A stretch of DNA of 64,000 nucleotides, taken from Octopus vulgaris (lineage: Eukaryota). The notes below the pieces were generated by a model. That model did no database searches. It saw only the letters and a program-made list of their open reading frames with translations, and was not told the DNA's origin. The translations under genes were made by a program, and so were the position numbers. Shown here piece after piece: positions 6,725-60,900 of this stretch; within the stretch, counting starts at the first letter, position 1; the number at the start of each line of letters is the position of its first letter. The stretch spans positions 49,042,001-49,106,000 of the forward strand of contig OX597833.1 in NCBI GenBank assembly GCA_951406725.2. The letters run 5' to 3'.

Positions 6725-7189
6725 GTATATATATATATATATATATATGTATATATATGTACGTATATATACATATATATATATATATATATCTCATGGA
6801 GCTTCTAGGTGTTTTCATTCAATAAACACTCACAACGCACGGTCTGGGAATCGAAACCGCGATCCTGCGACCGCGAGTCCGCTGCCATAACCACTAGGCC
6901 ATTGCACCTCCACGTATATATATATATATATATATGTATATATATGTACGTATATATACATATATATATATATATATATATATATATGTACGTATATATA
7001 CATACATATATATGTCCAACCCATGCTAGCATGGAGAACGGACGTTAAACGACGATGATGATATATATATATATATAAATATATATAAATATATATATAT
7101 ATATATATATAACAAAGTGGAGTTGTAGGGTACCGCACGAGTGGAATTATATACGAAAGGTTTGAAAATGCAATTTAAAAGATGTTTAT

Positions 7190-7323
7190 TTACTTTACCG
7201 GTTTCACTCTTTGGAAAAAGATTGTCAAAAGTAACATGTAGAAGTTTGGTTGCGTTAATGCAACCAGTCTTCTACATGTTACTTTTGACAATCTTTTTCC
7301 AAAGAGTGAAACCGGTAAAGTAA
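7190..7323. ncRNA. Inverted pair of minimal hammerhead-like motifs, U3:A8 core (+ 7279-7323; - 7190-7234)
   Basis: TTACTT | TTGACAA | TCTTT-TTCC-AAAGA GT | GAA A-CCGG-T A | AAGTAA, within a ~100-bp-arm palindrome at 7157-7356. Confidence 0.6.
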
Positions 7324-7549
7324 ATAAACATCTTTTAAATTGCATTTTCAAACCTTCTTTTGGAGGTGCAGATGAGGGCAGCTGCATCGAACTCTCTCAT
7401 GCACCAAATGGCAGTTGCTGAAAAGCTTTCATGAAGTAAAACCATGTAGCAACACCAAATGGCGGTGCCCCAGCATGGCCACAGCTCATGAGCTGAAACT
7501 AGAATCAATCAATCAATCAATCAATCAATCAACCAATATATACATAGCA

Positions 7550-7596
7550 AAAACTGTCCGATGAACGGCAACGGGAAACGCAGAGTAACAGGTTTT
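7550..7596 (+). ncRNA. Type I hammerhead-like motif, CCGAUGA core
   Basis: AAAACTGT | CCGATGA | ACG-GCAA-CGG | GAA AC-GCAGA-GT A | ACAGGTTTT; a second, degenerate family member lies at 37128-37173. Confidence 0.65.
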
Positions 7597-57800: not shown

Positions 57801-57946
57801 GTTTTAGGTAACTGTAAAGTGCATGTTTGTATATGTGTACATGTGTGTGTGTGTGTATATATATACATACACATACATATATATATGTATATATGAATAT
57901 ATATGTATGTGTGTATGTATGTATGTATATATATATATATATATAT

Positions 57947-57991
57947 ATATATTTGAAAACTCCACTAGAGTGGACGAAAGCGCTAATATAT
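57947..57991 (+). ncRNA. Minimal type I hammerhead-like motif, U3:A8 core
   Basis: ATATAT | TTGAAAA | C TCCAC-TAGA-GTGGA C | GAA A-GCGC-T A | ATATAT. Confidence 0.6.
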
Positions 57992-60900
57992 GATATATGA
58001 TTTATAAAAACTTGTAACATACTAATAAATATCTGTAAATATAAAACCATCCAAATTTCTGAGTACCTCATTTCTTCTAATATATAATACATGTACATCA
58101 TCTCCAAACTTTCTAATATATATATATATAACCGTGCTTTTTCTGTTGTGAGTTTGCTACCCAGGTATTGGTTATCTTTCGAATTATCCGTAATAAGATA
58201 ATTCATTTGTCAACTTATATATATATATGTGTGTGTATATATATAAATTAGAGAAGAACCAACCTTTTATCAATTCAGCAATGAAATAACGATGATATAA
58301 TTAAATTATACCATATAGAAAAAAATTAGATATACAATAAAAACATATACCAATAATTAAGTAAAGTATAAAATAATAAATCAAAAGTACATAATTGGTA
58401 AAAGGACTACACGTGTTATATATATATAAACGCACACACACATGTGCGCACACGCACATATATTTACGTGTGATGTATTAATTTTGTTGGATCAAAGTTA
58501 AGCGGTGTTGAAAAAGTGTTAGTGATGGAAAAGGACAATAGATATATAAAAAGTTTGAGAAGTTCTGAATTTGACCATAGGTTTATTTATTTGGTTAGGG
58601 CTCACCAGGGCTAAATAACATCACATTTCTTGTATATACCCTAGTAACAAATTTTTTTTTTTTTTTTTTGTAGTACATTGTTATTTCTCACTGCCCTGCT
58701 GTTGTTAGACAAGATAAGTAGATTGTTGTTAGAAATCCACTTTATATAAGTCACGATTCTAGTTCATGTACTAAAGTACTTATATGTTGCAATCACCGAA
58801 GGTTTTTAATTATTTTCTCAGATTATTTTAATTCGTTTTATTGATTAAGTTTTATAAATCAGGATGAAATCAACTGACCCTGTGTATATTGCAGAATGCA
58901 CATACATGCACAAATATAGTTGTATAGAAAAATATTTGACTACTAGCTGGTCCCGTGCCATCGAAAACGACAGCTAATTCTAGTATTTTATATGTAAATA
59001 TGGATAGTAAATCCAATCAATTCACATACTTCCCTTGTACACACACACACACACACACACATAAACACATACACACATATTCACACAGAGTTGAAACACT
59101 GTTTGACTTTTCTTTTCAGCATTGAATTTTCACCATCCCACTTCCATTGTGTGCGCACACACACACGCACAAACACAAACAGACAAACATTCACATACCT
59201 CCCATTTACATACACACACATATACTCACACAGGGTTGAAACGGTCCCACTGCCAGTTTGCCATCACCCCTTTCTTCTTTATTCATCTATCACCCCTTCC
59301 TTTCTCATTCATATGTTGTGATGGAGAAAAACACAAGAGTATTATTTTAGTAGATGCTCTTCCAGGTTCAACTTTAACATTTGTTTGATTTGTCAAAACA
59401 ATTGGCTTTAAAGCTTCTTTATTCTTAAGGTCATTAACTGTGCCCTTGTACTTTTGGAAATGTTAGCTGCCAATGTGGGCAGTTGCACTGAGGCCTGCAC
59501 TGCCATACAAAACCACAGGCAAGACGAACAAAGAATGGTCTACAATTTACAAAGCACAAATCTGAAGCATCATGAAACATGTCTATTTAGCCTTTAGGTG
59601 CATGTAGGCTGTGTGGTTAAGAAGCTTGCTTCCCAACCATCTGGTCGTGGGTTCAATTCCATTGTGCACCACCTTGGGATGGTGTCTTCTACTATAGACC
59701 CAAACCGAACAAAATCTTGTGAGTGGATTTGGTAGATGGAAATAAAAAGAAGCTCATCTGGCTGTGTGGTAAGTAGCTTGTTTACCAACCACATGGTTCC
59801 GGGTTCAGTCCCACTGCATGGCACCTTGGGCAAGTGTCTTCTACTATAGCCTCGGGCCGACCAAAGCCTTGTGAGTGGATTTGGTAGATGGAAACTGAAA
59901 GAAGCCCGTAGTATATATGTATATATATATATATATATATATGCGTGTGTGTGTCTGTGTTTGTCCCCTTAGCATTGCTTGACAACCAATGCTGGTGTGT
60001 TTATGTCCCCGTTACTTAGCGGTTCGGCAAAAGAGACTGATAGAATAAGTACTGGGCTTACAAAAGAATAAGTCCCGGGGTCGAGTTGCTCGATTAAAGG
60101 CGGTGCTCCAGCATGGCCGCAGTCAAATGACTGAAACAAGTAAAAGATAAAAGATAAAAATAAAGAAAGATTATATGTGTTCGTGTGTGTCTGTGTGTAC
60201 CCTTGTCTTGATATTACATAATAGCTGTAAATGACATCATCATCATACAAGCGAGGTTGTTCATTTCCAGTTTTCCTTGAAAAATATGTCTTGTCATGGG
60301 AAAATGTGACCTTGCTTGGTAACAGGTGAGGGTTGGTGGCAGGAAGGGCATCTGGCCATAGAAAATCTGTCTCAACAAACTTCTGTCTGACCCATGCAAG
60401 CATAGTAGAAAGTGGACGTTAAATGATGATGATAATAATGATGATCCTGGATGAATTTCTGACACAGATTAGCCGACCTGAAAGAAAGCTGTAGGACTGA
60501 ACCCGGAACCATGTGGTTGGGAAGCACATTTCTTACCACACAACCACTCCTACGCTTATTGTTCGTAAACAGAAATTTTCTGTGCTCTTTTAATTAATTT
60601 ACCTACTTTCCATATAGACGATAGCTTTATATATATTTCCCCATCTAATTGTTGTGTAAACGTTGCAAATGCTTCACTCTCTACTTCTTTAACTTTCAAA
60701 TTTAGTTTGGCAGCTTCATATCATATCTTTCCATCCTTTTCTAATTAAATTCTGTTATCTATACTGTATTCTCTCATTTTATCACCATACAACTTTTAAT
60801 CGCATTGCAGATTTTAGTCTTCGTCTTTTCTTATGCTTTTATTTCACCATCTATTTAAATATTCCTTCTAATTTATCTCGCTCTTATGTTATGGCGTTTG

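Follow-up and report, generated by a model that had tools for sequence, protein, structure and literature searches.

A 64,000-nucleotide (nt) stretch of the Octopus vulgaris genome (assembly GCA_951406725.2, contig OX597833.1, positions 49,042,001 to 49,106,000; hereafter the window) carries hammerhead ribozyme motifs in seven families of short repeats, designated A to G. The motifs are very probably minimal type I hammerheads in the pseudo-long terminal repeats (pLTRs) of several lineages of Penelope-like elements (PLEs), most of the short pieces being pLTR remnants and two families, D and A, being non-autonomous riders. The anatomy of the motifs, their sense position behind PLE open reading frames (ORFs), the structure of the families, their target bias and their pattern of conservation support this reading directly. 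Minimal Penelope hammerheads, the U3:A8 core pair, solo and inverted copies and (TA)n targets are already published. The system is real and mostly known, with two unusual cores, a G3:C8 pair in family B and a fixed U6 in family G, that may cut.

Hammerhead motifs in the window

The window was searched with a descriptor of the minimal type I hammerhead in which positions 3, 7 and 8 were free. It gave 11 matches, ten of them Watson-Crick at 3:8, compared with means of 1.3 matches (maximum 3) and 0.13 Watson-Crick matches (maximum 2) in 40 local dinucleotide shuffles, a control that is lenient because the descriptor was designed after motifs had been seen and was shaped by them. A preliminary description of the window had reported motifs from at least six unrelated short elements. 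Hammerhead motifs are present at all the places it named, nine of the 11 matches being among them (core starts in Table 1), and seven repeat families have been resolved; the other two matches are at 4428 and 55726. The same description regarded two motifs as degenerate. This is borne out at 37128, where the core is decayed (CCAACGG) and was missed by the descriptor, and is refuted at 23443(+), where the core CUGUGGA, matched only once position 6 was freed, is a conserved variant.

Relatives were sought in the whole assembly (2.80 Gb in 227 contigs, an animal genome). For each family 40 genome candidates were scored and 30 loci fetched; fetched loci are labelled here with L-numbers. The candidate totals are lower bounds: 2259 for A (query core at 51837), 3534 for B (30172), 1317 for C (7285), 1342 for D (34404), 864 for E (7558), 1892 for F (57953) and 2443 for G (23443). 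Each set of about 30 loci used for targets and structure includes the copy in the window, and the duplicate loci L040, L051, L064 and L129 were dropped.

When the scan was widened to 899 kb, comprising the window and the fetched loci, and positions 3, 6, 7 and 8 were left free, it yielded 211 matches in 23 clusters, several of which had been search seeds while others were incidental. Nineteen clusters are Watson-Crick at 3:8, among them all 12 that were seen in more than one locus (7 C:G, 4 U:A and 1 G:C); five shuffles of the same set gave 9-18 matches, 3-7 of them Watson-Crick. The proposal that positions 3 and 8 change together between families as a Watson-Crick pair is upheld by these clusters and by the window matches. 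The independent swap events may be as few as two, because the endonucleases of the three U3:A8 families resemble each other (34-48% identity, against mostly 20-28% with those of G and B, in long alignments) and because a tree of eight endonuclease stretches separates only a Hydra-like pair from the rest, leaving C, F, G, B and a family with 781-amino acid (aa) ORFs unseparated on long branches.

That the motifs are chance matches in AT-rich, palindrome-rich DNA has almost no probability left and is refuted for the seven families. Shuffles of 0.9 Mb do yield 9-18 single matches, but motifs are not as frequent in shuffled DNA as in the window, where enrichment is at least ten-fold, and unrelated lineages repeatedly have them in sense orientation behind PLE ORFs. 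Single matches such as those at 55726 and 4428 may be noise because of this background. The former (55720-55764) is a lone hammerhead-like match with core UUGAGAA and a near-palindromic stem III; it has no relatives in 30 loci chosen by GIY-YIG profile and may be due to chance.

Further hammerhead families occur incidentally in L033, L080, L088, L133, L172, L224, L237, L239 and L247, with cores CUGAUGA, CCGACGA, CCGAGGA or UUGAUAA, so that the genome holds well over seven.

Anatomy of the seven families

All seven family consensuses have the Penelope-type minimal type I topology with a palindromic stem III, as had been noticed from the window, and form the three-way junction of an open stem I, a stem II hairpin, GAA, the A15.1-U16.1 pair and H17, position 17 being A, C or U throughout. 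Stem III is ACGU in A and G, AAUAUU in B, ACCGGU in C, ACAUGCGUGU in D, ACUCAGAGU in E and AGCGCU in F. The consensus cores are CUGAUGA plus an extra A in A, GUGAACA plus an extra G in B, UUGACAA in C, CCGAUGA in D and E, UUGAAAA in F and CUGUGGA plus an extra A in G, the additional base of A, B and G lying between A9 and G10.1. Families A, B, C and F thus have A6 together with a Watson-Crick 3:8 pair, as do D and E with U4C, and G has U6 instead. A search for CUGANGA would miss C, F, B and G, as the preliminary description anticipated for non-canonical cores.

The 10.1:11.1 pair is G-C in A, B and G, U.U in C, C.C in F, A-U or U.U in D and A.G in E, the mismatches of C and F being fixed within their families. 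The 7-bp stem I of the 57953 copy of F is supplied by the flanking TA run. An F-like copy, 76% identical, has a U-A to C-G swap in stem II. Folding of 12 motifs placed the dimer lower in energy than two monomers in all 12 and predicted a dimer paired through stem III in about four, a calculation that had no control and from which no conclusion is drawn.

Parent elements and insertion targets

Tblastn with three Penelope proteins found no Penelope ORF in the window, in agreement with the earlier statement that neither a Penelope reverse transcriptase (RT) nor a GIY-YIG ORF is present there. Longer copies elsewhere in the genome connect C, F, G and B to such ORFs. In these four families the hammerhead lies in the pLTR, in sense orientation and downstream of an ORF with RT, a CX2-5CxxC linker plus a GIY-YIG endonuclease at the C terminus, as read from translations and Pfam matches. 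By these motifs, from which the clade names are taken, the parents would be Neptune/Nematis-type PLEs.

The parent of family C in L211 consists, in order, of TA, an inverted pLTR piece, RT, the CxxC linker, GIY-YIG, a CA-rich region of about 2.5 kb, the hammerhead, a tail and TA, with Pfam matches to RVT_1 (E 1e-4) and GIY-YIG (E 9e-5). Assignment of C to Naiad, which would explain Naiads without canonical hammerheads, was ruled out by the C-terminal position of the endonuclease. Family F has sense-strand Penelope ORF pieces upstream in L125, L259 and L257. For G, the sense ORF piece upstream in L195 is 79% identical to a long frame in L254 that has RVT_1 and GIY-YIG matches and ends upstream of a G-type motif. 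Long copies of B were located via an upstream segment common to two incidental copies, and five of the seven fetched carry PLE ORF stretches. One of them (L264) has 530 open codons with a GIY-YIG match (E 9e-5), ending 1.1 kb before the G3:C8 motif.

The association is also seen from the side of the endonuclease. A GIY-YIG profile search of the genome gave 6136 candidates, including many 781-codon frames, and in 13 of 30 loci chosen solely by this profile the ORF is followed, at 0.4-0.9 kb, by a UUGAUAA (U3:A8) hammerhead in sense orientation. Two Hydra-like ORFs precede CCGAAGA and CCGACGA motifs.

Some of these elements deserve separate mention. L261:1664-4009 represents a young PLE family of Neptune type, in which the 781-aa ORFs are intact and the hammerhead has the core UUGAUAA and G10.1-C11.1; another long open frame appears directly upstream of its ORF. 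In L045, L133 and L219, Hydra-like PLE ORFs (a motif-based call) are accompanied by U4C hammerheads, and a genome search for the L219-type endonuclease gave 19,674 candidates. Hydra-like ORFs near B, F and G loci were considered as parents of those families and ruled out, as they have their own pLTR and hammerhead.

With at least three (TA) units within 20 nt of the 3' end as the criterion, and a background of 10%, 3' ends lie at (TA)n in 28/29 copies of C, 28/29 of F, 30/30 of E, 23/30 of G, 14/28 of B, 11/30 of D and 3/30 of A. The (TA)n targeting proposed for the motif-bearing elements therefore holds for C, E, F and G, partially for B and D, and fails for A, whose window copy (51837) lies outside (TA)n.

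Family B and the G3:C8 core

The long copies of B carry the loop of the 10124 copy in the window (subfamily B2), and the element that bears the G3:C8 core is young and has an open frame of 530 codons. The short B arms end at one 5' point, with G preceding AGATG in 20/23, where the long copies have C. Tentatively, these arms fit full-length copies of a capped RNA starting within the pLTR, a reading that is weakened by the lack of B1 copies among the long B copies fetched. Head-to-head pairs have their two motifs on opposite strands and so cannot themselves give a dimer partner within one transcript. In L262-L268 the sequence directly 5' of the B motif, at the start point of the short copies, resembles a branch point with a 3' splice site and also an initiator.

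Family G and the A6U core

A G-related set was gathered with the 3' flank alone as query. It comprises 24 copies, of which 23 are informative (one is interrupted by TA), and these group into a few subfamilies, with 73-90% identity to the consensus, and are therefore not independent. U6 is kept in 22 of the 23. All four bases occur at position 7 (U8, A6, G5, C4) and position 17 is A in 16, U in five, C in one and G in one, while the remaining core positions are near-invariant and vary mainly at CpG sites. The hammerhead pattern is one of free variation at exactly these two positions, and 23443 is accordingly not a decayed copy. Mean column conservation is 0.90 in the motif, 0.75 in the 5' flank and 0.87 in the 3' flank, the last value being inflated as this flank was the query.

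Families D, A and E

Family D is an ORF-less head-to-tail unit with a type I hammerhead, within 150-450 nt. In ten of 30 copies a 36-nt tail connects it to its own 5' start, so that the unit measures about 370 nt. A near-full second unit is found at only one of the 30 loci, most being monomers or partial tandems, and inverted 5' pieces occur in 19/30 copies. The tail-to-start joint is also present in assembled contigs of two of four sequencing runs, which fits circles and tandem DNA alike.

Family A has a 75-nt tRNA-like head upstream in 23/30 copies, with A- and B-box-like motifs read by eye against the consensus, and an inverted head in 15/30. ARAGORN found no tRNA genes in the 20 of 30 A loci searched, and the head had no Rfam tRNA match. 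In L004, L005, L014 and L020 the tRNA-like head and the body are separated by a common stretch of about 570 nt, which in L005 lies within the (AAT)n linker and is probably another element targeting (AAT)n. Family E has an identical 5' start in 30/30 copies.

The earlier interpretation of the short elements as a non-autonomous radiation fails for C, F, G and B, which are 3' pLTR remnants of ORF-bearing PLEs. In its general form, that all the short elements are independent retrozyme-like or short interspersed nuclear element (SINE)-like families replicating as short RNAs, it is refuted, and we regard it as improbable. The self-joining of D, the tRNA-like head of A, the constant start of E and the single 5' point of the B arms would all suit such a scheme, but internal priming, on a transcript starting inside the pLTR, is likewise expected to give fixed short copies (PMC11167929), and the longer copies of C, F, G and B extend upstream into PLE ORFs. 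Only D and A look non-autonomous, and E could stand on either side.

Table 1. Hammerhead-bearing elements and motifs in the window
Feature	Position	Strand	Core (start)	Predicted cut after	Remarks
Family C insertion	7112..7345	both			5'-truncated pLTR plus tail on - (7259 to 7112, ending in (TA)n); inverted piece on + (7255-7345)
Hammerhead C, second copy	7190..7234	-	UUGACAA (7228)	7196	
Hammerhead C	7279..7323	+	UUGACAA, U3:A8 (7285)	7317	U.U at 10.1:11.1; stem III ACCGGU
Family E	7547..7696	+	CCGAUGA, U4C (7558)	7587	149-nt element with fixed ends
Family B (subfamily B2) head-to-head pair	9994..10305	both	GUGAACA, G3:C8, extra G (10124, +)	10159	Between TA runs
Family G pLTR remnant	23380..23563	+	CUGUGGA, A6U (23443)	23470	Between TA runs; Penelope ORF upstream in L195/L219, L254
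Family B (subfamily B1) head-to-head pair	30005..30355	both	GUGAACA, G3:C8 (30134, -; 30172, +)	30097, 30208	
Family D	34195..34562	-	CCGAUGA (34404)	34370	Head-to-tail unit of about 370 nt without ORF; 10-nt palindromic stem III
Older E-related copy	37095..37296	+	Decayed		83% to E consensus; short inverted 5' piece
Family A	51764..51967	+	CUGAUGA, canonical (51837)	51872	(AAT)n linker plus body; without tRNA-like head
Family F pLTR remnant	57951..58116	+	UUGAAAA, U3:A8 (57953)	57985	Between TA runs; C.C at 10.1:11.1; stem III AGCGCU

Comparison with known elements

The minimal hammerheads of metazoan PLEs, as described in the main text of PMC4209133, share with the octopus motifs the type I fold, a short palindromic stem III, an extra base between A9 and 10.1, U3:A8 pairs, a mostly single occurrence as solo motifs, opposite-strand pairs, and the presence of many families per genome. 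They differ in having the consensus CUGANGAH and a conserved G10.1-C11.1. G3:C8, A6U and C.C at 10.1:11.1 are absent from the part of that main text examined, and its one searchable supplement has no Octopus entry. The section of PMC3088659 on natural core variants gives U3-A8, A6C and U10.1-U11.1 and includes neither G3:C8 nor A6U. No natural example of either was found in the literature surveyed, outside which lie Lunse et al., file 1 of PMC4209133 and the bioRxiv supplements, which may list them. The available portion of an O. vulgaris repeat annotation (PMC13282606) reports 31 recently active Penelope-like families and there uses neither "hammerhead" nor "ribozyme".

The parent elements resemble the Neptune/Nematis- and Hydra-type endonuclease-bearing (EN+) PLEs in the relevant parts of PMC8557442, both in the order of RT, CX2-5CxxC linker and C-terminal GIY-YIG and in heavy 5' truncation, an inverted 5' copy, an optional tail and (TA)n bias; unlike the EN+ PLEs covered there, they have long CA-rich 3' regions. 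Family D is like the non-LTR retrozymes, as far as these are described in PMC7229834 and the accessible text of bioRxiv 10.64898/2026.07.22.740005, in being an ORF-less, head-to-tail unit of similar size with a type I hammerhead, and unlike them in being mostly monomeric or partially tandem and in its frequent inverted 5' pieces. Family A recalls the Sm-alpha-type SINE-like elements of schistosomes, which in the portion of PMC6765202 concerned have a promoter followed by a hammerhead, and differs in its PLE-type minimal hammerhead, (AAT)n linker and PLE-like inverted heads.

Proposed mechanism and activity of the variant cores

Target-primed reverse transcription would have produced the short pieces as insertions that are either truncated at the 5' end or confined to the pLTR; they often carry an inverted 5' piece, a tail is optional, and most have landed in (TA)n. 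The parents of C, F, G and B would be elements that bear an ORF and a Cys linker of Neptune/Nematis type, and D, as an ORF-less head-to-tail unit, and A, with its tRNA-like head, would ride on the PLE machinery. Each lineage would have fixed its own core: U3:A8 in C and F, G3:C8 in B, U4C in D and E, and A6U in G. The motifs may cut slowly, as dimers through the stem III palindrome, with the aid of a PLE protein, or both (PMC11167929 and parts of PMC4209133), and cleavage might trim element RNA out of read-through transcripts. Uncut RNA would be the usual insertion template, because inserted copies span the cut site.

Several points weigh against this account. Changes at A6 are expected to impair hammerhead activity. 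For A, D and E, 30 loci of 3 kb per family yielded no parent ORF, so that the proposed link of longer copies to a Penelope ORF, which holds for C, F, G and B, fails for these three. The suggested Infernal check against Rfam produced no hammerhead model, either among the best 150 of 362 matches for the window or among all matches for two short stretches (E<=5 and E<=10), the output being dominated by microRNA (miRNA)-like matches on TA repeats and inverted pairs. Within-family conservation is uninformative on selection because the copies are 92-98% identical. Conservation of the motif above its flanks, checked in G, is clear against the 5' flank but barely exceeds the 3' flank. Family F is weakened by a consensus stem I of only about 2 bp together with its C.C mismatch. 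A natural A6C hammerhead cuts at <0.1 per min, according to the core-variant section of PMC3088659. In an Anolis element insertion in vitro did not need the hammerhead, and none of the RNA-seq reads ended at its cut site (PMC11167929).

Some of these observations would suit a different division, in which the motifs of A, D and E are ribozymes and the variant cores (A6U in G, the mismatched F and C, and G3:C8 in B) are non-cutting, hammerhead-shaped signals for protein binding or folding. We consider this unlikely, though to be taken seriously. Insertion in vitro is not blocked by hammerhead mutants (PMC11167929), substitution at A6 lowers activity (PMC3088659, in the same section), stem I of F is very short, and uncut RNA serves as a template, since inserted copies span the cut site. 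Against these stand the positions that G retains (G5, G8, A9, G12, A13 and A14) and its avoidance of G17 in 22/23 copies, which are catalytic requirements rather than requirements of shape. Cleavage by a PLE hammerhead is partly restored when C3G and G8C are engineered together (PMC11167929), and natural hammerheads with U3:A8 and with U10.1.U11.1 are known (PMC3088659).

Returning to cleaving pLTR hammerheads, a stronger version can be put forward tentatively, at less than even confidence. The cores G3:C8, which belongs to a young autonomous family, and A6U, which spans subfamilies that are 73-90% identical, would be unreported in nature and under selection, both cutting, probably only when paired or chaperoned by the element protein. 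The retroelement consensus would then be wider than CUGANGA, and reports of PLE families without hammerheads may partly reflect descriptor bias.

Other features of the window

The window has a G+C content of 35%, with many (TA)n runs and RTE-type fragments, and the output of an inverted-repeat finder was dominated by the TA runs. RTE-type reverse transcriptase fragments, recognised by eye from motifs, lie at 3018-4100, 7964-8151 and 25899-27096. Tandem arrays occupy 19471-20000, 21025-21964, 36265-36664 and 25073-25426, with periods of 185, 129, 40 and 67, respectively. A long perfect hairpin at 5554-5632 scored below the cut-off with miRNA models and may be another head-to-head insertion.

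Implications for Penelope-like elements

The hammerhead of PLEs cuts poorly alone, needed the element protein in one in vitro system and was dispensable for insertion there. The octopus genome offers a natural panel of lineages with their own cores, some with near-intact ORFs, and therefore allows cleavage, dimer dependence and protein assistance to be compared directly; the 781-aa PLE family is a good source of protein for in vitro work. The motif also allows many short repeats to be recognised quickly as remnants of pLTRs and not as SINEs or hairpin elements. If the A6U and G3:C8 cores cut, standard descriptors would undercount the ribozymes of animal genomes.

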